A stretch of 16,547 bases of DNA from a bacterium (GCA_046759165.1 JBHIBS010000030.1:1-16547), one strand, 5' to 3'; counted from the first letter of the stretch, positions 3,791 through 15,276 are shown. Translations and numbers: made by a program. The notes: generated by a model from the letters alone, not told the origin.

Positions 3791-4306
3791 ATGGATATAA
3801 AAATAAGAAAAGAGGAAGAAAAGGACTATAAAAAGGTTTATGAAGTAAACCGGTTGGCTTTTCAACAAGAAAATGAAAGTAAACTGATTGAGAAAATCAG
3901 AAAAGGTGAAAACTTTGTTCCTGAACTCTCACTTGTAGCTGAGATTGGCAACGAAATTGTCGGACATATTCTTTTTTCAAAAATAAAAATCATTGGGAAT
4001 TCTGTCTTTGAGTCTCTTGCTCTGGCTCCCATGGCAGTTATCCCTAAGTTTCAGAAACAAGGTATCGGAGGTAAATTAATTAAAAAAGGGCTTGAAAAAG
4101 CGAAAAGGCTGGGTTTTGATTCCATAATTGTGCTAGGGCATAAAGAATATTATCCAAAATTTGGATTTCAAAGAGCGTCAAAATGGAGTATAAAATGTCC
4201 TTTTGAGGTTCCTGACGAAGTTTTTATGGCAATTGAATTAACTAAAAAAGCGTTAGAATGTAAGGCTGGAACTGTCAAGTATCCCGAGGAATTCATGGAA
4301 GATTAA
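3791..4306 (+). CDS. GNAT family N-acetyltransferase (YhbS-like), integron cassette 1
   Basis: Motifs SLVAE...IVGHILFS, LAPMAV.P.FQKQGIGGKLI (acetyl-CoA-binding QxxGxG), VLGH..YYPKFGF. SD AAGGA upstream. Confidence 0.93.
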   Translation: MDIKIRKEEEKDYKKVYEVNRLAFQQENESKLIEKIRKGENFVPELSLVAEIGNEIVGHILFSKIKIIGNSVFESLALAPMAVIPKFQKQGIGGKLIKKGLEKAKRLGFDSIIVLGHKEYYPKFGFQRASKWSIKCPFEVPDEVFMAIELTKKALECKAGTVKYPEEFMED

Positions 4307-4354
4307 TAGCAAATAACATGGATGAAGTCTGAAACAAATTCAGCCGAAAACTGC

Positions 4355-4448
4355 ATCTAACAGCGGATACCCGGCTCCACACTTCGTGCTTCGCTCAAAT
4401 CGCCTCGCCATTGGCTCGACAACTTCGGGTATCCGCGGAACGTTATGC
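4355..4448 (+). repeat. attC site 1
   Basis: R'' ATCTAAC ... R' GTTATGC with inner stem GCGGATACCCG/CGGGTATCCGC. R'' is complementary to the GTTAGAT core at the start of the same cassette (3747). Confidence 0.85.
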
Positions 4449-4483
4449 GAAATCGGCCACAAGTCACACAAGGAGTGTATCCT

Positions 4484-4990
4484 ATGTCAGCAGAAGAAAA
4501 CAAGATCCTAAAGGTTGAAACCAAGCTACAGAAACTTGGCCTCATCCTCCCAGAACCATTAAAAACCCCACCGGGGATGAAGTTACCCTTCCCGTGGGTG
4601 AGGGTGCGGGGCAATCGGGCCTACATCTCGGGACATGGTCCTCAGAACCCTGATGGCTCAATCGCACATCCGCTAGGCAAAGTGGGCGGGGACTTGTCAC
4701 TAAATGAAGCCTACCAGGCAGCACGGTTAACCGCACTGTCTATCCTGGGGAGCCTCAAGCGTGAACTGGGCGACCTGGACCAGGTAGTGGCCTGGCTGAG
4801 GGTCCTTGGTATGGTCAGCTCGGCACAGGGCTTCAATCAGCAACCACTGGTGATCAATGGCTTCTCCGACCCGATCCTTGAACTGCACGGACCCGAAAGG
4901 GGACTTCACGCACGCTCGGCCGTGGGTATGGCAGAGTTGCCGTTCGGCATCCCAGTCGAGATTGAGGCCGAGGTCGAGATCATCGGTTAG
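4484..4990 (+). CDS. RidA/YjgF/YER057c/UK114 family protein, integron cassette 2
   Basis: AYISGHGP...GKVG...AARLTALSILGSLK..LGDLD...NGFSD...HARSAVGMAELPFGIPVEIE. Likely start is ATG 4484 (SD AGGAG); the ORF-track start at 4445 lies inside the attC core. Confidence 0.92.
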   Translation: MSAEENKILKVETKLQKLGLILPEPLKTPPGMKLPFPWVRVRGNRAYISGHGPQNPDGSIAHPLGKVGGDLSLNEAYQAARLTALSILGSLKRELGDLDQVVAWLRVLGMVSSAQGFNQQPLVINGFSDPILELHGPERGLHARSAVGMAELPFGIPVEIEAEVEIIG

Positions 4991-5104
4991 CATCCGAATT
5001 GGCCCATCCATCGAGCAGGTCTTTGACTGCGTGACCAGGCCGGGCTAAGAAACATGACGTCCCGCTCTCAATAACTGAGCAATGACATAAAGCTGGGCAG
5101 CGTC

Positions 5105-5195
5105 GCATAACACGCCGTAAGCGACTTTACTTCGTTCCGCCCAAAACCGCCTCCGCTGCACTTCGACGGCTTCGGTTACGGCGAGCACGTTGCGA
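5105..5195 (+). repeat. attC site 2
   Basis: R'' GCATAAC; TCGCATAAC (5103-5111) is the exact complement of GTTATGCGA (4442-4450). Inner stem CGCCGTAA/TTACGGCG; GTT at 5189-5191. The central region resembles attC1. Confidence 0.85.
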
Positions 5196-5232
5196 AATCG
5201 CCTTCTAAAAAGAAAAATAGAAGGAAACTACT

Positions 5233-5400
5233 ATGGATAAATCAATACCCAATTCCTACTTCAAATTCATTTCTTTCAACTACAAATTTCGGGATTTCTT
5301 CTTGCCCCGCATGAATATCTTGAAAGAAGTGGGGATAATTTGTTACCATTTTTTAACACAAATGCCCAAAAATGCCGTAAGATCCAGTAAGTTTCCATAA
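5233..5400 (+). pseudogene. Truncated cassette 3, N-terminus resembling a class I SAM-dependent methyltransferase
   Basis: ATG 5233 with SD AAGGA; MDKSIPNSYFKFISFNYKFRDFFLPRMNILKEVGI, then unrelated-looking residues to TAA 5400. The N-terminus resembles (from memory) small methyltransferases in which KEVGI precedes the VLDxGCGxG motif, which is absent here. No following attC. Confidence 0.55.
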
Positions 5401-5450
5401 AATAAAAAATCCCAAAGCTACTTGCAAACTCAAGGAGAGTTGAGATTTTT
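5400..5450 (-). terminator. Possible intrinsic (perhaps bidirectional) terminator between the convergent units
   Basis: Imperfect hairpin AAAAATCTCAA...TTGGGATTTTT on the minus strand, followed by T-rich sequence, about 60 bp downstream of coaE. Confidence 0.4.
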
Positions 5451-5510
5451 GTGGGTCTTTCTTAGGTCTACTATTTCCTGCTTTTTGTTTACGAAACTGT
5501 CGCTCTGCCG

Positions 5511-6152
5511 CTACTGACATAAACTGAGCAATTCTTTCCAGATCAATTCCACCTGCTTTCGCAAACTGGTAGAATCCGAATCACCATTAATAACGTAATC
5601 TGCGTGTTTCTTCTTCTTATAGAGAGGAATTTGCGCACCTATCCTGGCTCTGGCCTCCTTAACAGTAAGATTATCGTCCTCCCGTAATCTCTCAATTTGT
5701 ATTTTCTGAGGCACATAAACGAGAACTATCTTATCGACTAGATACTCAAGTTTAGCCTCAAATAGAAGAGGTATATCCACCAGCAGAACATTCCCCTTCC
5801 TTCCACTTGCTCCCAGCTTAGACAGTCTTGTGAGTTTCTGAAATTCCCTTATCTTTCTCTTTATTTCAGCAACGATTTTGGGATGCATAATTGCGTTTAG
5901 GCATTTCCTCTTTTGTCTATTTCCAAATATTATGTGAGCCAGCCTTTTTCGGTTCAATCTACCGTTTCTATTTAATACTTCCTGGCCGAATTTCTTAACT
6001 ATCTCTTCGAAAACTTTTGTGCCAGCCCTGGTCAACTGGTGAGCAATTTCATCGGTATCGATAGTTCTGCAACCAAAATTCTTGAATATCTTGACCACTG
6101 TGCTTTTCCCTGAAGATATTCCTCCTGTCAAACCCACAACGAGCATATCCAA
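5511..6152 (-). CDS. coaE: Dephospho-CoA kinase
   Basis: VGLTGGISSGKSTV P-loop, D.DEIAH, LNAIMHP, DIPLLFE, ARIGAQ, ADYVING. Start is TTG 6152 or ATG 6146. Confidence 0.96.
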   Translation of the reverse strand: MDMLVVGLTGGISSGKSTVVKIFKNFGCRTIDTDEIAHQLTRAGTKVFEEIVKKFGQEVLNRNGRLNRKRLAHIIFGNRQKRKCLNAIMHPKIVAEIKRKIREFQKLTRLSKLGASGRKGNVLLVDIPLLFEAKLEYLVDKIVLVYVPQKIQIERLREDDNLTVKEARARIGAQIPLYKKKKHADYVINGDSDSTSLRKQVELIWKELLSLCQ

Positions 6153-6163
6153 TTTTCTCCTTT

Positions 6164-7681
6164 TTACTTCTCCTCTTTAAAGACCTGTGCTGAAAAAGTA
6201 TATATTTCTGTATCCTTATCCTTCCACGCATCCTCAGCCAAATTGGCCTTATCGTAACAGAGCCTATTCAGAAACTCCTCTTTTGACCAGCCAGTTTCAG
6301 TCGCCACCTGGGGCAAAAAGACTCCCTGGCGGTAGCCTTTCTTTACAATCACACCGTGTTTCCCCAACTCTATCTCATCTACGCTCTTGATTTTTTCTGG
6401 CACTGTCAAAACAGAAAGCTCAATTTCAATCTCATCTAACTCTTCGGGCCTTACTGGGGGAAAACGAGGATCACCAGTGGATGATTCAATCGCCATTTTG
6501 GAGACAGCCTTGTAGAGTTCCTCGAGAGGCATAATATACCCGATGCAGCCGCGAAGCAGTCCCCTTCTATGTAAAGTTACGAAGACTCCTCTCTTCTCTT
6601 TCAACAGAGGGTCTTCTACATTAAACTCTGGTACCTTCCGAGACCGGATATATTCTTCAATTGTCTTCCGTGCGATATCCAGGAGAACCTTCTGTTGTTT
6701 TTCATCTAACATTTTCCTGCCTCCTTTCTCTTTCTTCAGTTCGGGAGTCATCTCTTCCTTTTTCAGGTGTATTATGGCAAAGGCACCATAACCCACCACT
6801 CTTCTCTTATCTCCAGTCACATCTCCAGAATTTGCATATTTCAATAGCTTTATTCTGTTTGCCCCGCATGCTTTTGCGGCCAGAATTGCAGTAAATACAG
6901 CTGCACCACCACAGAGCTCCGCTTTTCCACTGGTGATGTGTTCCCTTAAGCCATCGAGATCAAAATTCTCTAAGTCGCGGATTGCTACTCCGTCTATCAG
7001 ACATGCTCTCCCATAGGTGTGGTAATGGGACATATCCGTAGAGGCAACAATGAGTATTCTCTTCTTCCCCTTTGAACGCACAATAGCATCGGCTAAAAGC
7101 TGACAGAACTCCTCGGAATTGTTATTAAAAACTATGGGAACTATCTTGAAATCTTTTAATGTTGACTGGAGAAACGGAAGTTGCACTTCGAGAGAATGTT
7201 CATTCTTGTGGGCTTTCTCATCAAAATAGAACGATTGATGTTTTCGTATAATTTCTTTAGAAATTTCAGAATCTACTTTAACTTTTCCCAGGGGAGTTTC
7301 CCACCACCCTTCAGCATAAACAGAAGCCCCATCAACAGGGACATAGTGGCTCGGTCCCAGAAGAATTACAGTGTCAAAATTCTCCCCCTCCAGCTGACGA
7401 TAACCATGTGCTGCGACCTGACCAGAATATGTGTAGCCTGCATGGGGTAAAATCAACGCTACCAGGGTTCCGGGCAGTTTCTCCTGGTCGACCTTTTTAA
7501 GAAAACCCCCGATCATATCCTTCAAGACCCGAGGCGAGCCTGGATAGAACTGACCACCCCAGCGAGCTCGACGAACCATGGACTCATAGGCCTCTGCTGC
7601 CCCCTGAGGCGAAATACAGAAAAAGAGAAAAATAAAAGAGAGAAAAATTCTCCTAATAGAGATTGTGAACTCCTTTGACAT
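6164..7681 (-). CDS. AmmeMemoRadiSam protein B (MEMO1-like) fused to protein A (AMMECR1-like), with N-terminal signal-like segment
   Basis: MEMO motifs GQFYP, PHAGYTYSG, GPSH, EHSLEVQLPFLQ, STDMSHY, YANSGD..VVGY. AMMECR1 motifs GVFVTL, LRGCIG, DPRF, ELSVLT, GVFLPQV. Confidence 0.93.
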   Translation of the reverse strand: MSKEFTISIRRIFLSFIFLFFCISPQGAAEAYESMVRRARWGGQFYPGSPRVLKDMIGGFLKKVDQEKLPGTLVALILPHAGYTYSGQVAAHGYRQLEGENFDTVILLGPSHYVPVDGASVYAEGWWETPLGKVKVDSEISKEIIRKHQSFYFDEKAHKNEHSLEVQLPFLQSTLKDFKIVPIVFNNNSEEFCQLLADAIVRSKGKKRILIVASTDMSHYHTYGRACLIDGVAIRDLENFDLDGLREHITSGKAELCGGAAVFTAILAAKACGANRIKLLKYANSGDVTGDKRRVVGYGAFAIIHLKKEEMTPELKKEKGGRKMLDEKQQKVLLDIARKTIEEYIRSRKVPEFNVEDPLLKEKRGVFVTLHRRGLLRGCIGYIMPLEELYKAVSKMAIESSTGDPRFPPVRPEELDEIEIELSVLTVPEKIKSVDEIELGKHGVIVKKGYRQGVFLPQVATETGWSKEEFLNRLCYDKANLAEDAWKDKDTEIYTFSAQVFKEEK

Positions 7682-7686
7682 TCACC

Positions 7687-8799
7687 CTAATAGGCATCGC
7701 TCAAAAGGTGAATGTTGCCTATCTTAACCCTTTTTAAACCAGCCCTCCTTGCCCCTGCCAGGCATTCCTCAGCGTGCCTTCGGGAAGTGGTTGGAAGATC
7801 CGACATATAGAAATGGGGATGGAAAGCCAGGATGGAATATGGAATCTCAGGGTCTAAGGAGGCTATGAACTTAGCAAGCTTTGAGACCTCAAAACTGTCA
7901 ACATATCCGGGCACGAGAAGCGTTGAAGCCACAAGAAAAGGTGGTTTCCTCCTCTTCTTAGTATAATCAGCCAGAAGAGAGAAGTTCTCCTGTGTCCTCC
8001 TGTTCGAAACTCCGCACAAGGCTATGTTTACCTGTTCACTGAAAGCTTTCAGGTCAAATTTTATACAGCCACCTGAATCTATGGAAAGTTCAGCTATCTC
8101 CTTTAAGAATTTAGGATTCATACAGCCATTCGTTTCCCAGCAGATGCGCACTCTTTTCTTCTCCAAAGCGAGCCGTGAAGTCTCCAAGGCATGGTATATC
8201 TGGGGAACAGGGTCGCCGCCAAAATAGCAGATGCAATTTGTTTTCCCATCCACACAGTTAGACAACTCCTCTGAAGTTACGAAATTTCCATCTTTCAGGC
8301 TTTCGGGATTCCCCAGAACGGCTGGAGTCGCCCGTTTCATCATGCGTTCAACCTCCTCCCTGTAGTGCCAGTTCTGGCAGAACAGGCAATCGAAAGAACA
8401 GCCGTGGTAGAAGACCGCTAAATTTTTGTATCCATAGCTTTCTCTCTCGCCACAAACCCATTCAGCCACACAATTGGTTGGTAGTGGGTCGTGGTACCAG
8501 CTGAGGCTTCCTCTTTCTCTACTTATCAGATGGACCAACTTTCCCAGATGGTTAGTTCTCAGGCCACAGTAGCCAAAGCTTCCCTCTGCAATTCGGCATT
8601 CATTGGCACAAATATTACATTTCAGTCCTCTGTTATCTTTCGGGACCTCTTCTGGAAGGCGAAAACTACTTCTTGAGACTTTATGGGCTTTCTCTATTAA
8701 AGGTGAAACTTTCTCGAAGTCTCGCCTTATACATTCAACACAAACGCCCAGAATTTTTCCAATTAACGGAGACTCCTTTTTGCAATTAAGACACTCCAT
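7687..8799 (-). CDS. Radical SAM protein, PflA/AmrS-like activase superfamily, with extra N-terminal Cys motifs
   Basis: CSFDCLFC (CxxxCxxC), CYFGGDP, CWETNG, KFDLKA; N-terminal CLNC/CVEC and CNICANEC..CGLR. Likely start ATG 8799 (SD GGGAGG); the ORF-track extension to 9015 overlaps the DUF72 gene. Confidence 0.88.
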   Translation of the reverse strand: MECLNCKKESPLIGKILGVCVECIRRDFEKVSPLIEKAHKVSRSSFRLPEEVPKDNRGLKCNICANECRIAEGSFGYCGLRTNHLGKLVHLISRERGSLSWYHDPLPTNCVAEWVCGERESYGYKNLAVFYHGCSFDCLFCQNWHYREEVERMMKRATPAVLGNPESLKDGNFVTSEELSNCVDGKTNCICYFGGDPVPQIYHALETSRLALEKKRVRICWETNGCMNPKFLKEIAELSIDSGGCIKFDLKAFSEQVNIALCGVSNRRTQENFSLLADYTKKRRKPPFLVASTLLVPGYVDSFEVSKLAKFIASLDPEIPYSILAFHPHFYMSDLPTTSRRHAEECLAGARRAGLKRVKIGNIHLLSDAY

Positions 8800-8809
8800 A
8801 GTCCTCCCA

Positions 8810-9520
8810 CTATCTTCCGACCATCTTTTTGAACCTTGAGGCATCTTCAAACATATAGATATTGTTGAACATACAATATATCTCGCTCTTTTCTTCACAT
8901 TTTGCTTTAAGTTTTCTGAGATCCCTATCAGCGTAACGATATCTGTATCCACCCATTCCATGTAGTCGAAAATAGTTAAACTGTCCAAAAAGAGCCTCAG
9001 CTTTAAAAGGGTCAACGCAGTGAACCAGTCCCAATTCAGAACAGATACCCCTTATTTCCTTCCCATCCCATTTTCCCCTAGGCTCCCAGAGTAAAAGGAG
9101 ACCTTGTCTTTTAATTTTCTTGAAGAATTTTCTCATATTCCTCTTATTTTCAACTGTGGGATGGAAGCTGGGTGGCATCTGAAAAATAACTATTTTCGCT
9201 TCAAGAAGTTGGGCAATTTTCTGAGTCTTCTTCCACGCTTCAAAGACCATATCGGTTGGCTTGAAGGAACCATAATTTGCCTTCTCCTTTTCTGGAATTG
9301 GATAGCCAAGTTTCCTGTAAGTTGGGCTGGATGGCAAATGGGTAATCAACTGGGAAGCCTTTAGAGTAAATTCGAATCCCTTAGGAGCCTCTTCCCTCCA
9401 TTTAAGGACGGTTTCCAACCTGGGGAACTGGTAGAATACTTTCTGTATCTCCAAGACTTCAAAATTCTTATAATAGCTCGCCCTAGCCACGGAAAATCCA
9501 CAACACCCAACCTTAACCAT
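8810..9520 (-). CDS. DUF72 (YecE/UPF0759) family protein
   Basis: VKVGCCGF, LEIQKVFY, W....P..FEFTLKASQLITH, FQMPPSF, WEPRG.W, VDPF, YFRLHG, YCMFNN. Confidence 0.92.
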   Translation of the reverse strand: MVKVGCCGFSVARASYYKNFEVLEIQKVFYQFPRLETVLKWREEAPKGFEFTLKASQLITHLPSSPTYRKLGYPIPEKEKANYGSFKPTDMVFEAWKKTQKIAQLLEAKIVIFQMPPSFHPTVENKRNMRKFFKKIKRQGLLLLWEPRGKWDGKEIRGICSELGLVHCVDPFKAEALFGQFNYFRLHGMGGYRYRYADRDLRKLKAKCEEKSEIYCMFNNIYMFEDASRFKKMVGR

Positions 9521-9543
9521 ATAATACCCCTCATTACAGCTTT

Positions 9544-9594
9544 CTGGAGTCCTTGCGAAAGCAAGGTCTTTCCTCCCTTTCGGGAGGACTCCAG
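9544..9594. repeat. Double-hairpin intergenic repeat, complete copy A
   Basis: CTGGAGT-[CCTTGC GAAA GCAAGG]-TCTTT-[CCTCCC TTTC GGGAGG]-ACTCCAG. Confidence 0.85.
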
Positions 9595-9602
9595 TTCCGA
9601 TT

Positions 9603-10610
9603 TCACGTTGTTATTGGAAGCGGCTTTCCACAATATGGGCAATTGCCCTCTTCAATTTTCATCTCCAGTATAGAGAAACCGTCTCTTTTAATGATTAGTT
9701 TTCCACAGTGGTAGCAATAGGTGTTTTCACCCATGTGTCCTGGAACATTGCCAATGTAAACATAGTGGAGACCCCTCTCAAGTCCAATCCTTCTGGCCTC
9801 TTCCAAGGTTTCTACGGGTGTAAAGGGGAGATGGGATAACTTCAAATGAGGAACGAATTGAGTCACATGCCAGGGCGTATCCTCGCCAAGCTCTTTGAGT
9901 ATCCAGGAAGCAATTCCTTCTAAATCTTCCCTATCATCATTATATCCTGGGATAATATTGGTTACAACCTCTACCCACATTCTCCATCTCTTCTTTGCCC
10001 TCGCGGTAACCTCCAGAATTCCAGTAAAATCGGGAATGTTCCCAATCTTCCGATAACCCTCCTTTCTGAACCCTTTAATATCCACTCTGAAAGAGTCGAG
10101 ATAGGGACCAATTCTATCCAGCGCCTCGGGTGTAATGTAGCCATTGGTAACATAATTTGTAAGTAACCCTTTCTTCTTTGCCAGTTTAGCAGAATCTAAA
10201 GTATATTCAAACCAGATTGTTGGTTCATTGTAAGTCCAGGAGATTCCCCGACAGTGCCCTTTCTCTGCCAGTTTCACAGCATCTTCTGGAGAAAAGTATT
10301 GGGCCTCTCCTTCATAATCAACATGGGAGATGTCGTAATTCTGGCAACCAGGACAGCGAAAATTGCAGCCGAGAGTACCTAAGGAGAGCCATCTCGATCC
10401 TGGGTAGAAGTGGAAGAGGGGTTTCTTCTCTATTGGGGATATAGCCCAAGTGGAAACTCTTCCATAGATAAGAGTGTAGAGTTTCTCTCCCACCTTTTTC
10501 CTCGTCCGGCACCACCCGGTCTCTCCTTCTCCAATTATGCACCTTCTCTGACAGATGCCACATCTCACCCTGCCATCTTTCAGAACCTGGTAAAGAGTTG
10601 CTTCTTTCAA
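9603..10610 (-). CDS. amrS: AmmeMemoRadiSam system radical SAM enzyme
   Basis: VRCGICQRRC..GWCRTR, PIEKKPLFHFYPGS, GCNFRCPGCQNYDIS, WTYNEPTIW.EY, VTNGY, VDIKGF, YVYIGNV, TYCYHCG, CPYCG. Likely start is TTG 10610 (SD GGAGG 6 nt upstream); the extension to 10697 runs through repeat DNA. Confidence 0.93.
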   Translation of the reverse strand: MKEATLYQVLKDGRVRCGICQRRCIIGEGETGWCRTRKKVGEKLYTLIYGRVSTWAISPIEKKPLFHFYPGSRWLSLGTLGCNFRCPGCQNYDISHVDYEGEAQYFSPEDAVKLAEKGHCRGISWTYNEPTIWFEYTLDSAKLAKKKGLLTNYVTNGYITPEALDRIGPYLDSFRVDIKGFRKEGYRKIGNIPDFTGILEVTARAKKRWRMWVEVVTNIIPGYNDDREDLEGIASWILKELGEDTPWHVTQFVPHLKLSHLPFTPVETLEEARRIGLERGLHYVYIGNVPGHMGENTYCYHCGKLIIKRDGFSILEMKIEEGNCPYCGKPLPITT

Positions 10611-10616
10611 GACATC

Positions 10617-10696
10617 CCTCCCTTTCGGGAGGATTCCAAGAAATTCTGGAGTCCTTGCGAAAGCAAGGTATTTCCCTCGCTTTCGGCAGGATTCCA
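10617..10696. repeat. Double-hairpin repeat: half copy C (10617-10638) plus copy B (10646-10696)
   Basis: TTCTGGAGTCCTTGCGAAAGCAAGGT is identical at 9542-9567 and 10644-10669. CCTCCCTTTCGGGAGG is identical at 9572-9587 and 10617-10632. Confidence 0.85.
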
Positions 10697-10704
10697 AGGT
10701 GGAG

Positions 10705-11454
10705 CTAGAATATGAAAAAGCCGGCCTTTCTCATCCTTTTTACGGAAGTATCATAGGGATCGCAAATTTCTTCCTCCAGATGGTCTTTATACCCCACCTC
10801 CCTCAATTTTCTTACCATCTTTCTTCTTTCCTCTTTGGACATTAGGCGAGAATCACTCATTGAGGCAACCCGAAAGTATATGCCTTCCCTATTCAAGGTC
10901 TTCACAGCTAGGTAGGGCAGTTCATAAAACTCACCCCTTCCACCCGTCCTCTTCTCAAAACTTTCGGGAGTGCCAGCCTTTATGGAGATTCTAACATAGA
11001 GATTTTTATATTTCTTTAGAGCCCTGACATATTCTGGCTGTTTACCGAAAAGAATCCCATTTGTCTCCAGAACAAAGAAGAAGTTAGTATCGTCAACCAA
11101 GTCCAGAACTCTAAGTAGATGCACCTTCCCCAGAGTCGGTTCTCCGCCAGATACGCGTAATTTCTTAACTTTTGCCTTTCTGGCATTGGAAACGAGTCTC
11201 TCAAAAACCTCCTCAGGAGTAAAGAATTCTCCATATTTGTTAGGGAAATCCCGGGAGAATGAAACCCAGCAAAACACACACCTCAAACAGCAGCCCACAA
11301 GATATCCAGTAGAAATTCCACCATATACCCCTGTACAGTAGAAATTTGTGTATTTGCGGGAAGAATCCCTTAAGCATAACTTTTCGGTCTCCCTCGCTAA
11401 ATTAAGCGGATCGAAAGGAACAGAATCTTTCGTAATGAAACCCTGATATTCCAT
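10705..11454 (-). CDS. Radical SAM protein, small uncharacterised type common in archaea
   Basis: YGGISTG..VGCCLRCVFCW (CxxxCxxC), RVSGGEPTL, FVLETNGI, VRISIKAG. Confidence 0.88.
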   Translation of the reverse strand: MEYQGFITKDSVPFDPLNLARETEKLCLRDSSRKYTNFYCTGVYGGISTGYLVGCCLRCVFCWVSFSRDFPNKYGEFFTPEEVFERLVSNARKAKVKKLRVSGGEPTLGKVHLLRVLDLVDDTNFFFVLETNGILFGKQPEYVRALKKYKNLYVRISIKAGTPESFEKRTGGRGEFYELPYLAVKTLNREGIYFRVASMSDSRLMSKEERRKMVRKLREVGYKDHLEEEICDPYDTSVKRMRKAGFFIF

Positions 11455-11463
11455 TATGTTATT

Positions 11464-12198
11464 TCACCTTTTCCATTTTTCCGCTTCATCACCAGTCATG
11501 GGAACAAACCGGACAGGAATTACGTCCTGGACGGTCAATTTTCCCTTTTTCCTTTCTACGATCTTGAGCACCTGGGGAAAATGGGTTTCTCCCACAGGTA
11601 TCACCATCCTGCCACCTTCGGCAAGTTGATCAATTAGAGGCTGGGGAATATGGTCAGGTGCACAGGTCACTATGATTCCATCGAAAGGCGCATACTCTTC
11701 CCAGCCTAAATACCCATCACCGCATTTTACCTTTATATTTCCATAACCCAATTTCTGGAGAAGCTCTTCTGCCCTCTTAGCTAAAGGTCCCAGTATCTCT
11801 ATTGTATAGACTTCCCGAGCCAGTTCAGAAAGGATCGCTGCCTGATAACCCGAGCCCGTGCCCACCTCCAATACTTTCTCATCGCCTTCTAAATTCAAAC
11901 ATTCTGTCATCAGGGCGACAATATAGGGCTGAGAAATAGTCTGTCCCTCTCCTATAGGAAGAGGATAATCGCTATAGGCAAATGATCTGTATTTTTTGGG
12001 GACAAACTTGTGTCTGGGAACAGTCTCCATTGCCTCCAGAACCCGTCTATCTCTTATTCCTCTCCCCTCAATCTGCTCAACAACCATCGCCCTTCTTTTC
12101 TTTTTGAAGTCCGCTCCATTTTCGCCCCTTCTTCCCAGGCAACAGTTGAAGATTATCAAAAAGGCTACAATCAAAAAGAGAACAACTTTTCTTTTCAT
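11464..12198 (-). CDS. pcm: Protein-L-isoaspartate(D-aspartate) O-methyltransferase with N-terminal hydrophobic signal
   Basis: VPRHKFV, AY.D.PLPIGEGQTISQPYIVA.M, VLEVGTGSGYQAA, GDGYLGW...APFD.IIVT, QL..GGRMVIPVG, VRFVPM. Confidence 0.96.
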   Translation of the reverse strand: MKRKVVLFLIVAFLIIFNCCLGRRGENGADFKKKRRAMVVEQIEGRGIRDRRVLEAMETVPRHKFVPKKYRSFAYSDYPLPIGEGQTISQPYIVALMTECLNLEGDEKVLEVGTGSGYQAAILSELAREVYTIEILGPLAKRAEELLQKLGYGNIKVKCGDGYLGWEEYAPFDGIIVTCAPDHIPQPLIDQLAEGGRMVIPVGETHFPQVLKIVERKKGKLTVQDVIPVRFVPMTGDEAEKWKR

Positions 12199-12833
12199 CT
12201 CAACCTACTCTCCAGTTTTTTACTGCATTCTTCGCAAAAATCTGCTTCTTTTATATCAGTATCCCGAAGACTATTGGAAAAGTGCATCACACATTTCGCA
12301 TTGCCACAGTGCTTTAAACCGAAAGCATGTCCCAACTCGTGAACCGCTTCCTTAATTGCCCTTTCAAGAAAAAGCTTATCATTCCTGCTATTTCCGTAAA
12401 ACTCTTCCCGCAATCGAGTTAAAGAGATCAAAGCCGCCGTTCCACCCAGGTCTGCCTGGCCAAAGATGAAGTTTAATGCGGGAACGAAGATGTCCACATC
12501 GAGAACACCTAAAACTTTGCCTGCATCTTTCGGGATATTTTGCTTTAATTCTTCCAGTATAGGAGTGGCAAAATATTGTCTCCGCTCAGCCCTGTAAGCA
12601 TCCTCAGAAAGTGGCAATGGTTCCCCTATCTCAAAGACTGCATCAAACTTCTCTCGCAAAGCCCAGGACAATTTCAAAAGAGTCTCTTTATCAACATGTC
12701 CAACTTCTATAATATAAATCTTCATTTCTGCTCCTTTTAATCTCCCTTTCTCCTCTTGTGGCAAACACCCGGCAAGGAAAATTAAGAATAAAAATATTAG
12801 AATTATCCCTGACATCCATTTCCCCATCTTCAT
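12195..12833 (-). CDS. Archaemetzincin family (M54) Zn metalloprotease with in-frame lipoprotein signal
   Basis: AY...RRQY, LNFIFGQA, KEAVHELGHAFGLKHC....CVMHFSNS...D.K...FC..C. Upstream in frame: MKMGKWMSGIILIFLFLIFLAGC. Alternative start ATG 12725 with SD AAAGGAG. The stop overlaps the pcm start. Confidence 0.9.
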   Translation of the reverse strand: MKMGKWMSGIILIFLFLIFLAGCLPQEEKGRLKGAEMKIYIIEVGHVDKETLLKLSWALREKFDAVFEIGEPLPLSEDAYRAERRQYFATPILEELKQNIPKDAGKVLGVLDVDIFVPALNFIFGQADLGGTAALISLTRLREEFYGNSRNDKLFLERAIKEAVHELGHAFGLKHCGNAKCVMHFSNSLRDTDIKEADFCEECSKKLESRLR

Positions 12834-13154
12834 TCCAGGCACTGCCCACCTTCCCTCCCAGCGACCATCTCTTCCATTATTCTTCAGTTTTGCGAAGCAT
12901 CGCTTACCAACTGTGGGAACAGGATATGTCCCCCTGTACACCAGGGCTTTAGCAATTCTGTCTCTAAACTCCACTTTAAAGTGTCTATTCCTTATTCGAG
13001 CGTAGATTTCAACGAAACCGTAATGGAGATGGTCTTCTCTGTTTCAAGATAGATAGCTGGTTGCGACCAGCGGTGGGCAATGAAGAATGCCAGAAAAATC
13101 ACAATTGAAAATAATAGGAAAAGGGACCTTTTTCGTACTGTTTACAATTCGTAC

Positions 13155-13613
13155 CTAAGATTTAGTTTCCAGAAGAATGGTTACAGGTCCGTCATTATGG
13201 ATGTCCACAAGCATACGGGCCTGAAACTCTCCAGATTTGACTTCTACTCCCTTTGCCTTCACCTTTTCAATAAATTTTTCATATAGATCCTCTGCCATCT
13301 CTGGTGGGGCAGCAGAAGTGAAATCGGGCCTCCTCCCCTTTCTACAATCGCCATAAAGGGTAAACTGAGAAATAACCAGAACTTCCCCTTTCACGTCGAG
13401 AACTGAAAGGTTCATCCTATCGTTTTCGTCAGGAAAGATACGCAGATTTGAAATCTTTTCGGCAAGATATTCGGCATCCTCCTCACTATCCTGTCTTCCT
13501 ACCCCCAAGAGAACTACTAATCCTCTTTTAATTTTATTTATCTCTCTCAATGATTCCACTTCGTTCTTAACACTTACGCTCGCTTCAGATACTCTCTGAA
13601 CAATTGCTCTCAA
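13155..13613 (-). CDS. dtd: D-aminoacyl-tRNA deacylase
   Basis: RAIVQRV..ASV, LRIF.D....MN.S, SQFTL, KGRRP.F, NDGPVT. Likely start is TTG 13613 with SD GGAG. Confidence 0.96.
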
Positions 13614-13629
13614 TTCTCTCTCCAATAAA

Positions 13630-14067
13630 TTATCCTTTTTCTATCTCCTCCATTGCCTCATCGATATTTCCCACAGAAATTATACCCTCAATATTCCAGG
13701 TATTGATTCCCACCACCCTTTTGCCTGTGCCAAGAGCCAGTCCAATCTCGGACAGAGTGCCATACTTTCCGTCCACAGCAATCACAACATCAGCAGTGCG
13801 AACGATAATGGCATTTCGAGCATAGCTCATTGAAGTGACAATGGGTATATCCACAAAAGGATTGGCCTCAGTTTTTTCCTTGCCCGGAAGAATGCCTATT
13901 GTCAAACCGCCTCCATCCTTCGCTCCTCGGCAGGCTGCCTCCATCACCCCACCCAATCCTCCGCATAGGAGGATATGCTTTCTCTGGGCAATCTTCTTTC
14001 CCACCTCATAAGCAATCCGGGCTATTTCTTTACTGCAATAATTCCCACCAATAACAGCAACAATCAT
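13630..14067 (-). CDS. TIGR00725 family (LOG/Rossmann-fold nucleotide-binding) protein
   Basis: [39 protein letters not shown]...D.VIAV.G.YGTLSEI..AL. Confidence 0.92.
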
Positions 14068-14130: not shown

Positions 14131-15276
14131 TCAGCCCCGTCTAATATAATGGTAAAAGACAAATGTACCCAAAAGGCTTATCACTCCAGCCACAAAGAAC
14201 ACAGATTTCACCCCTAAAATATCCATAACTACACCTGCTATCAAAGGGGCTGCTATCATACCAGCACTCATTGCTGTATTGAATAGCCCCATGGAAACGC
14301 CCATCCCTAATCTTTGACCCACTTCTACCGTTATAGCTGATGCAGAAGGCATCGATGTTGCCCCACCAAGCCCCATTATGGAACTTATAAAAAATAGCTG
14401 CCAAAAATTACGAGCAATTGGTGTAATCAACAATGCCAGCGCTCCCACACTCGAACCTATCAATACCAAAAATAACTTATTATACCTATCTGCTAACCTC
14501 CCAAATGGATTCTGTAATAAGGCAATAAGAAATATATGAAAAGAAATTATTATTCCCACCTGAGATGAGGTTATATCTATCCTGGAAGCAAAAATTGGTA
14601 GAAACGCCATTATTCCACCTCTTCCCATCGCAGTAATAATTCTATAAAGAAGGAGTCCTTTCATAACATTATTTTTGATGATTTCTTTAAATGGGATTGG
14701 ATCATCCATTTTCGTTATTCCCGAATACCTCATATCCGGCAAGAACACTAAGGTTATCAAAAATGCAATTGCAGTTAAACCTGCCATCGCGTAAAATACT
14801 GATGCAATTCCAAATGATTCGTTCAGAAGGCCGCCCAGAAAGGGACCAGCACCCATCCCCAAAAGAAGCGCCATATTGAATGTCCCCATGTACCTACCCT
14901 CTCTTCCCTTTTCTGCAATCTCCCCGACATATGCCATGGCAACAGGAATGACCATCGCTGACGCAAGTCCATGGATAAACCTAACACTTGTTAGATAGTA
15001 AACATTACCAGCCACGATGTATACTAAGGAAATTCCAGAATACAATAACAATCCGAATGTTATAAATCCCTTTCTTCCTTTTTTGTCAGAGAGTTTTCCA
15101 ATTATTGGCATAAAAACTGCACGGGAAAGCGAATAACCCGAAAATATTATCCCTAACCATATACCAGTTGCCCCTAAGCTTCTTGCGTAAACCGGCATAA
15201 GTGGAGCAATAATTCCCAAGCCGAGCATTGCAGCGAATACCGAAATAAATAAGACACTAAATATTCTTTTTTTCAT
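14131..15276 (-). CDS. MFS transporter (DHA1-like)
   Basis: About 12 hydrophobic segments; motif A GKLSDKKGRK and its repeat GRLADRYNK; GPFLGG. Confidence 0.93.
   Translation of the reverse strand: MKKRIFSVLFISVFAAMLGLGIIAPLMPVYARSLGATGIWLGIIFSGYSLSRAVFMPIIGKLSDKKGRKGFITFGLLLYSGISLVYIVAGNVYYLTSVRFIHGLASAMVIPVAMAYVGEIAEKGREGRYMGTFNMALLLGMGAGPFLGGLLNESFGIASVFYAMAGLTAIAFLITLVFLPDMRYSGITKMDDPIPFKEIIKNNVMKGLLLYRIITAMGRGGIMAFLPIFASRIDITSSQVGIIISFHIFLIALLQNPFGRLADRYNKLFLVLIGSSVGALALLITPIARNFWQLFFISSIMGLGGATSMPSASAITVEVGQRLGMGVSMGLFNTAMSAGMIAAPLIAGVVMDILGVKSVFFVAGVISLLGTFVFYHYIRRG

Follow-up and report, generated by a model that had tools for sequence, protein, structure and literature searches.

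Conserved predicted export signals on Pcm, archaemetzincin and a Memo-AMMECR1 fusion encoded in one operon of an Elusimicrobiota family

The 16,547-nucleotide stretch GCA_046759165.1 JBHIBS010000030.1:1-16547, hereafter the window, derives from a bacterium of a family within the Elusimicrobiota and carries a row of genes, all on the minus strand, that runs from an archaemetzincin gene (amz) to the dephospho-CoA kinase gene coaE. Three products of this row, i.e., the archaemetzincin, a second paralog of the protein isoaspartate methyltransferase (PIMT) Pcm, and a fusion of the AmmeMemoRadiSam proteins B and A (AmrB-AmrA, or Memo-AMMECR1), are enzymes known as cytoplasmic, and each begins with a predicted export signal. 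Judged from sequence, the conservation of these signals and their linkage in one operon of this family are real. The features of the row are as follows.

12195-12833 (ATG at 12833), minus strand: archaemetzincin (M54), long form of 212 residues, predicted lipoprotein (NF033823, 187.3 bits against a cut-off of 145; PF07998)
12765-12833, minus strand: lipoprotein signal of the archaemetzincin, MKMGKWMSGIILIFLFLIFLAG followed by Cys23, with an LAGC lipobox
12720-12734, minus strand: internal Shine-Dalgarno (SD) sequence (AAGGAG) and ATG (Met38, MKIY...), a possible second amz start
11464-12198, minus strand: Pcm/PIMT, second paralog, predicted lipoprotein (NF001453, 262 bits against 188; TIGR00080, 239.9 against 159.05; PF01135 (PCMT), 225.7 against 20.3)
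12139-12198, minus strand: signal of Pcm, MKRKVVLFLIVAFLIIFNC followed by Cys20, recognized by motif and homologue conservation
10705-11454, minus strand: radical S-adenosylmethionine (SAM) protein of 249 residues, no signal (PF04055, 75.5 bits)
9603-10697, minus strand: AmrS, the AmmeMemoRadiSam radical SAM enzyme, no signal (TIGR04337, 319.6 bits, cut-off 220)
8810-9520, minus strand: DUF72 protein (PF01904, 113.5 bits)
7687-9015 as listed open reading frame (ORF), minus strand: AmrS-like radical SAM paralog (TIGR04337, 86.8 bits, under the cut-off of 220)
6164-7681, minus strand: AmrB-AmrA (Memo-AMMECR1) fusion, predicted to be secreted (TIGR04336, 292 bits, cut-off 26; TIGR04335, 182 bits, cut-off 99; PF01875; PF01871)
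7589-7681, minus strand: signal peptide of AmrB-AmrA, 31 residues (...GAAEA, then YES), with an n-h-c layout
5511-6152, minus strand: dephospho-CoA kinase (coaE), the last gene of the conserved row (TIGR00152, 169.5 bits)

AmmeMemoRadiSam protein A, protein B and the radical SAM enzyme are all encoded within this one operon, each scoring above its cut-off. The 249-residue radical SAM protein returned no model above cut-off in an NCBIfam scan. The real start of the AmrS-like paralog is probably the ATG near position 8799, since the listed ORF overlaps the DUF72 gene.

The three N-termini read, in translation, MKMGKWMSGIILIFLFLIFLAGC for the archaemetzincin, MKRKVVLFLIVAFLIIFNCC for Pcm and MSKEFTISIRRIFLSFIFLFFCISPQGAAEA for AmrB-AmrA, exactly as quoted in a preliminary description of the sequence, which had taken them for export or lipoprotein signals and whose placement of them was correct. 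That proposal is borne out by alignments to solved structures, which begin past the extensions, and by the retention of all three extensions in eight of eight same-family genomes. Signals were called from motif rules of the literature together with conservation; for lipoboxes the consensus [LVI][ASTVI][GAS]C was applied, preceded by a basic n-region and then a hydrophobic h-region. As a chance baseline, a lipobox-type start was found in 37 of 2311 frames of at least 120 residues in this genome (G000), while a basic and hydrophobic N-terminus without further membrane helices was found in 122 of 1239 frames of at least 200 residues. The export-signal observation is confirmed and lies far beyond chance. 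Furthermore, G000 encodes the processing machinery Lgt (198.8 bits), LspA (142.1 bits) and Omp85/BamA (214.3 bits), as well as two TatC genes (238 bits).

The AmrB-AmrA protein aligns to MEMO1 from residue 36 on and to the PH0010 structure 1VAJ at residues 330-504. Its signal consists of KE..RR, a hydrophobic run and AEA followed by YES, and this n-h-c layout is conserved in 8/8 family loci. Of 26 close homologues, 23 have a small-x-small site (13 AxA and 10 other) and one more has AxV immediately ahead of the YES/GE..VRR stretch, which is itself conserved. The ATG lies 5 nt past the stop codon of the upstream gene. In relatives an AAGGAG box and an ATG mark a start six codons further in, at codon 7; in the window this codon (7661-7663, minus strand) is ATC, as it is in a database protein of 96% identity, and so the start has either moved to the upstream ATG or is a non-canonical one. 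Both of these start candidates lie upstream of the hydrophobic core. A twin-arginine translocation (Tat) route was considered and rejected: the Tat consensus is S/T-R-R-x-F-L-K with an invariant twin arginine, and the window has RRIFL, but RR occurs in only 13 of the 26 close homologues, the rest having GR, TR, RK, KK or FR. Because the RR is not conserved, AmrB-AmrA is not classed as a Tat substrate.

Residues 35-237 of Pcm align to residues 7-207 of E. coli Pcm (3LBF) with an E value of 1.7e-54, and the extension lies outside this alignment. The SAM motif VLEVGTGSGY and the substrate motif QTISQPYIVALM are at least 90% conserved in 18 signal-bearing Pcm rows; we take these to be the SAM-binding GxGxG and the TISQP substrate motif of the family. 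The candidate lipobox of the window Pcm is FNCC. The pattern [LFVI][NS][CSG]C is matched by 47 of 51 close homologues; its Cys never varies, and position -1 toggles among small residues. By sequence the protein thus departs from the cytoplasmic location of characterized PIMT. More distant members possess canonical lipoboxes, e.g., LFIGC, IVNGC, LLVGC and FIAGC.

The archaemetzincin carries HELGHAFGLKH and CGNAKC...CEEC, i.e., HExxHxxGxxH and the four-Cys site, in alignment with A. fulgidus AmzA (4AXQ); the alignments to 4AXQ and 3ZVS begin at residues 34 and 37, respectively, past the hydrophobic extension. The extension itself opens with the n-region MKMGKW and continues through a hydrophobic run to LAGC, after which the sequence turns acidic; the lipobox Cys is kept in 9/9 family loci.

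Signal-less counterparts were found for two of the three proteins. A second Pcm without the extension is present in G000 and in all eight family genomes (in G000 at contig C2, 13520-14185, upstream of an NlpD-like lipoprotein gene), while a second, signal-less AmrB of 267 residues is encoded on contig C1; the archaemetzincin gene, in turn, is single in G000. A quick maximum-likelihood tree was built from 50 Pcm domains of the 41 genomes sampled; on it the signal label requires 3 changes, against a mean of 15 for shuffled labels, with 0/500 shuffles as low. The two Pcm paralog groups of family f1 form separate clades with 97% support (Shimodaira-Hasegawa-like approximate likelihood ratio test, SH-aLRT), and a single origin of the signal is compatible with this tree, whose deeper branches are weak.

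The signals are also widespread. Among the best 120 matches to each protein, an N-terminal hydrophobic segment was present in 114 for Pcm (76 with a lipobox by our own rule), in 108 for AmrB-AmrA (26 with a strict lipobox) and in 55 for the archaemetzincin (20 with a lipobox), and several of the matches without such a segment are obvious start miscalls. The nearest matches are from Elusimicrobiota, while more distant ones are from Omnitrophota, Zixibacteria, Latescibacteria, Calescamantes and others. Furthermore, in a scan of species-representative genomes the extension was found in 70 of the 80 nearest Pcm loci, its bearers including Desulfobacterota-type bacteria, Verrucomicrobiota, Chloroflexota, WOR-3, Nitrospirota, Acidobacteriota, Bacteroidota, Planctomycetota, Leptospira and Gammaproteobacteria. 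By these predictions, signal-bearing Pcm and AmrB-AmrA make up large clades over many phyla, with SAM motifs intact in Pcm.

The preliminary description had asked whether the signal-bearing variants co-occur across genomes, and within the family they do: amz and pcm adjoin in 8/8 genomes, and the row amz-pcm-radical SAM-AmrS-DUF72-radical SAM-AmrBA-coaE is conserved in G004, G005, G007 and G008, and in G003 as far as its contig runs. Two genomes of the same order, G009 and G010, have one row that encodes successively an AmrS with a hydrophobic N-terminus, a TatD-type hydrolase, a lipobox Pcm and, directly next to it, a lipobox AmrB-AmrA, while in the distant genome G014 a signal-bearing pcm abuts a signal-less amrB. 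At family level, a signal-bearing Pcm occurs in 9 of 32 families and a signal-bearing AmrB(A) in at least 11, a lower bound obtained from the best-scoring loci, with 6 families common to both.

Of note, a locus of genome G013 (L091; contig C28, 18000-28000) contains a Tat-signal AmrS, a lipoprotein M3/M32-like peptidase, a lipoprotein AmrB-AmrA, a mannosylglycerate-synthase-like gene and a 765-residue membrane SpeE-like protein, and is a second case of an exported metallopeptidase adjoining an exported AmrB-AmrA system.

If the three proteins are exported, Pcm would require SAM outside the cytoplasm, and since its SAM-binding motifs are intact, the question of extracytoplasmic SAM supply raised by the preliminary description is a genuine one. 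The major facilitator superfamily (MFS) transporter that it had put forward as a partner lies upstream of amz, beyond the following features.

14131-15276, minus strand: MFS transporter, plain MFS_1 (PF07690, 189.4 bits)
13630-14067, minus strand: SLOG/TIGR00725 protein
13155-13625, minus strand: D-aminoacyl-tRNA deacylase (dtd)
between the D-aminoacyl-tRNA deacylase and archaemetzincin genes: 322-nt stretch without an intact gene
12834-13040, minus strand: remnant of a 641-residue signal-anchored gene, recognized by similarity to a G007 protein

The MFS candidate was rejected on synteny: in none of the three relatives whose available sequence extends past the SLOG-dtd pair on its upstream side (G003, G005 and G007) was a match to it found, and in G007 the position is taken by a TauE/SafE gene. 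A scan of positions 12600-13300 returned 2 promoter and 1 terminator sites, against 1.2 and 0.8 expected, and gave nothing usable. Elsewhere in the window, the G+C content is 0.49-0.50 across positions 4001-5500, a region covering a plus-strand ORF at 4445-4990, against 0.35-0.45 in the remainder, and two minus-strand ORFs at 1746-2379 overlap in different frames and may represent a broken transposase gene, which they resemble.

A second locus of the genome, on contig C10 (positions 6497-11260, locus L096), holds the following genes in one row.

C10 10514-11260: TatC
C10 9277-10506: AmrS paralog with about 58 extra N-terminal residues holding LSRREFFK (TIGR04337, 366.4 bits)
C10 6979-9270: 763-residue membrane protein (NF037959, fused MFS/spermidine synthase; PF01564)
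within the C10 row: DUF362 protein with a Tat signal (TIGR01409)

The Tat-type motif of the C10 AmrS is conserved in the seven other family genomes with the paralog and in G011, G013, G025, G033 and G039; the TIGR01409 Tat model gave no match to the C10 AmrS at E values of 0.01 or below. Many of the Tat-type AmrS matches contain exactly one in-frame TGA or TAG (e.g., G005:C21, G008:C67, G013:C28, G033:C17 and G035:C121), which may reflect split genes, selenocysteine or sequencing breaks. A third, signal-less AmrS paralog of G000 lies on contig C4 (17945-22706) between genes that we take, from their N-terminal resemblance, to be Rnf-complex-like, together with a CutA-like gene and an ApbE-like lipoprotein gene.

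In a hydropathy scan the 763-residue protein shows seven helices, a SpeE-like region at residues 221-538 and about seven more helices, and the alternation of its K/R-rich loops apparently places the SpeE-like domain outside, a topology obtained by hand from hydropathy and a positive-inside K/R count. Frames of at least 700 residues with this architecture occur in 9/9 families with a signal-bearing Pcm, against 5/23 families without one (Fisher p 7e-5), a count that treats kin as independent and takes the family as a coarse unit. Furthermore, about 10 of 70 named loci with a signal-bearing Pcm are flanked by a protein of about 800 residues without a Pfam family; seven of the 11 such proteins tested gave weak central SpeE matches, and two were compared directly with the C10 protein and are collinear with it (E values of 5e-8 and 0.004), one of the two being encoded by the cultured Lutimonas saemankumensis. 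The apparently outward-facing SpeE-like membrane protein encoded on C10 is regarded as the best candidate for SAM supply, ahead of the MFS transporter.

Taken as a whole, these observations are best explained by an operon that encodes three exported proteins forming an envelope repair or processing scheme, with SAM reaching the periplasm, a reading to which we assign about even odds (a probability of roughly 0.5). The archaemetzincin and the second Pcm would be made as lipoprotein precursors, processed by Lgt and LspA and tethered to the periplasmic side of the diderm cell, while AmrB-AmrA would be freed into the periplasm upon cleavage by signal peptidase I; the three radical SAM proteins and the DUF72 protein encoded in between would remain in the cytoplasm. 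The exported Pcm could then methylate isoaspartyl (or aspartyl) residues of envelope proteins beyond the reach of the cytoplasmic Pcm, and the lipoprotein archaemetzincin could trim or remove damaged or processed envelope proteins. AmrB-AmrA may act on an extracytoplasmic substrate, possibly after modification by AmrS before export, and the best candidate route by which SAM might reach the periplasm is the 7+7-helix protein encoded next to the Tat-signal AmrS and TatC.

A number of points weigh against this reading. The Pcm lipobox is non-canonical, with N at -2 and C, S or G at -1, although N at -2, which is outside the consensus applied here, recurs among the lipobox candidates of this genome (LNGC, LNSC). 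The stretch after the Cys is moreover strongly basic, with at least two K/R at +2 to +5 in 41 of 47 homologues, and such a stretch would hinder Sec export in E. coli. Pcm is more basic after its hydrophobic segment than before it (RR..KKKRR in the window, RKK...K..K.RK in relatives), as would be expected if the extensions were uncleaved membrane anchors (N-out, C-in) whose catalytic domains face the cytoplasm. The enzymes would in that case draw on cytoplasmic SAM, their targets would be the inner leaflet or nascent membrane proteins, and the SAM paradox would dissolve. Such a topology is nevertheless considered unlikely, given the invariant Cys of Pcm and the small residues at its -1 position, the canonical lipoboxes followed by neutral or acidic residues in sister Pcm lineages, the acidic stretch after LAGC in the archaemetzincin and the AxA site of AmrB-AmrA. 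At least two K/R after the Cys are, in addition, found in 8 of the 37 lipobox candidates of this genome (e.g., LNGC then PKKK; LNSC then YPRVKRR).

A second difficulty concerns the archaemetzincin start, as a perfect and conserved SD sequence and ATG lie downstream of its signal. An SD-like AAAGGAG or AAGGGAG is found 6-7 nt upstream of the Met38 ATG in 9/9 amz loci, while the adjacent upstream linker varies freely; Met38 (MKIY) is the first residue of the solved archaeal proteins, and 24 of 44 close database homologues are start-called at the equivalent Met. Signal-bearing archaemetzincins of other lineages likewise mostly keep a Met right before the domain, by eye and uncounted. The first ATG of the window gene, on the other hand, has a poor SD, i.e., merely a distant SD-like run, and it is without coupling because the upstream gene is largely deleted. 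In six of eight relatives, a stop codon and one Asn codon directly precede the amz ATG; this stop terminates a 641-residue gene 3 nt before the amz start, and the long form is therefore translationally coupled in those relatives. In relative G002, no ATG occurs at the place equivalent to the long start. The remnant in the window encodes 68 residues with 47% identity to residues 36-103 of the 641-residue G007 protein (E value of 3e-21) and runs in frame into amz, about 540 codons having been deleted; a Pfam scan of the G007 copy returned no family.

The gene-caller choices and the conserved internal start of amz, together with an in-frame Met near the domain start of both Pcm and the window AmrB-AmrA, would also fit extensions that are untranslated, with downstream true starts and three ordinary cytoplasmic enzymes as products. 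This explanation is very improbable. For AmrB-AmrA, Met35 is the sole start candidate past the core and is Lys or Glu in seven of eight family loci, and the SD-backed ATG of relatives lies upstream of the hydrophobic core. The Met38 of Pcm is a family-wide residue that is found also inside longer or cytoplasmic homologues with other starts, and the pcm ATG overlaps the amz stop codon (ATGA) in the window and in the 8/8 loci checked. Within the 22-codon amz signal, codon position 2 has changed least (90 changes; position 1, 155; position 3, 164), which fits selection for a hydrophobic coding sequence, and well-formed n-h-c signals recur across phyla. The preliminary description had named downstream true starts in all three genes as one finding that would overturn its proposal; these are contradicted for Pcm and AmrB-AmrA, while for the archaemetzincin the matter is half alive, through the conserved internal SD and ATG. 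It is possible, on the sequence evidence, that this internal start yields a second, cytoplasmic archaemetzincin isoform.

The third set of opposing points concerns the linkage. Exported proteins and cytoplasmic radical SAM proteins are encoded together in this operon. Adjacency of amz and pcm was found in 0/6 genomes outside the family with an amz match, and within 7 kb of Pcm in 80 named loci tblastn at 1e-8 found no AmrBA, AmrS, Amz or DUF72 gene; searches of the same loci at 1e-8 gave no match to the 249-residue radical SAM protein or the C10 membrane protein either. The three-way linkage is therefore confined to this lineage. Three radical SAM genes between exported genes, in a conserved order, are what a dedicated maturation pathway would look like, in which the radical SAM enzymes, while in the cytoplasm, modify AmrB-AmrA or some other protein destined for export, in the manner of anaerobic sulfatase maturation, and the Pcm-like methyltransferase and the archaemetzincin tailor or process that one substrate. 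PIMT homologues act as tailoring enzymes in systems for peptides that are made on the ribosome and modified after translation (RiPPs), and the exported M3/M32-like lipoprotein peptidase encoded in G013 between the Tat-signal AmrS and the lipoprotein AmrBA points the same way. Nevertheless, the window Pcm scores 262 against 188 for genuine PIMT and reaches the RiPP-type models TIGR04364 and TIGR04188 only below threshold (135 against 320 and 119.7 against 380); no precursor-like small gene was seen, the stretch preceding amz being a gene remnant, and most exported Pcm genes elsewhere are without these partners. We infer that envelope protein repair or turnover is the most economical reading and that a dedicated maturation pathway, somewhat doubtful as it stands, is its serious rival.

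Finally, we know of no source of periplasmic SAM, nor of SAM outside the cytoplasm, and the limits given above for the C10 topology and the family-level counts bear on the same side. A broader joint reading remains tentative: periplasmic SAM-dependent chemistry, i.e., carboxyl methylation of proteins and, with a Tat-exported AmrS, perhaps radical SAM catalysis, may be present in many uncultivated diderms, fed by the 7+7-helix protein carrying or presenting SAM on its outward SpeE-like domain. Pcm, Memo-AMMECR1 and the lipoprotein archaemetzincin would then constitute one envelope repair or processing module in this lineage, in which a single amz gene may serve both compartments via the internal start.

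The envelope scheme may be set beside several known systems. Memo has reportedly been linked to nucleotide-base and isoprenoid modification, in a 2019 J Biol Chem study of the Memo superfamily by Burroughs et al. All three components of AmmeMemoRadiSam (TIGR04335, TIGR04336, TIGR04337; MEMO1 3BCZ and 7KQ8; PH0010 1VAJ) are found in the window operon, with the difference that B and A are fused and carry a cleavable-type signal. Balaji and Aravind (PMC2034487) describe a gene neighborhood and fusions of AMMECR1, radical SAM and dioxygenase-like genes and propose RNA base modification, naming the AMMECR1 motifs RGCIG and DPRF, both of which are present in the window AmrB-AmrA. Their text contains no mention of a signal peptide or of the periplasm, and export of the protein is difficult to reconcile with a role in RNA base modification. 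The relevant excerpt of Kaur et al. (PMC7159879) attributes 'Memo-Ammecr1 systems' to Burroughs et al. 2019.

Like E. coli Pcm (3LBF), the window Pcm keeps TISQP, the VLEVGTGSGY SAM motif and the later motifs, and scores above the equivalog cut-offs; it differs in its 20-residue lipoprotein-type signal, its translational coupling to the archaemetzincin, its place in a separate clade of many phyla and its being a second paralog beside a signal-less copy. The archaemetzincin shares HExxHxxGxxH and the four-Cys site with archaeal AmzA (A. fulgidus 4AXQ/3ZVS, M. kandleri 2X7M; MEROPS M54) and is aligned from the MKIY Met to its end with an E value of 6.5e-32. Unlike archaeal AmzA, it is bacterial, has a canonical lipobox signal before the retained original start and stands in an operon with Pcm, the latter in one family only.

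MsrPQ is a periplasmic methionine-sulfoxide repair system, and the proposed module resembles it in that envelope proteins, once damaged, would be repaired outside the cytoplasm, while a membrane partner would provide what the periplasm lacks; the chemistry and the families are other ones, and MsrPQ needs electrons where the proposed module would need SAM. Anaerobic sulfatase-maturing radical SAM enzymes, which are cytoplasmic and modify a protein that is later exported, offer a precedent for mixed compartments in one operon.

Literature searches, which did not cover Burroughs et al. 2019, returned no paper on an exported PIMT, an exported archaemetzincin, an exported AmmeMemoRadiSam system or a Tat-dependent or periplasmic radical SAM enzyme; the preliminary description's suggestion that the system is undescribed holds to that extent. 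PMC5442454 was considered as a precedent for an exported pcm and rejected, its pcm being signal-less. What is new here is that exported Pcm, exported AmrB-AmrA and lipoprotein archaemetzincin are linked at the level of one operon; the clean Pcm/AmrB paralog split and the possible dual start of the archaemetzincin are new as well.

To our knowledge, there is no repair route for isoaspartate damage in long-lived envelope proteins. Both envelope isoaspartate repair and the question of extracytoplasmic SAM become testable with a clade of exported PIMT enzymes that is large and conserved and whose SAM sites are intact. In the cultured Lutimonas saemankumensis (locus L235) the gene for an exported Pcm lies next to that of the membrane partner, so that genetic and fractionation experiments are within reach. 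Conservation of Memo and AMMECR1 extends from bacteria to humans, and we know of no established biochemical function for either; for the AmrB-AmrA clade in question, export of the fusion speaks against RNA as the substrate and narrows the search for function. For the bacteria of this lineage, the operon implies SAM chemistry in the periplasm, if the exported enzymes are active there.

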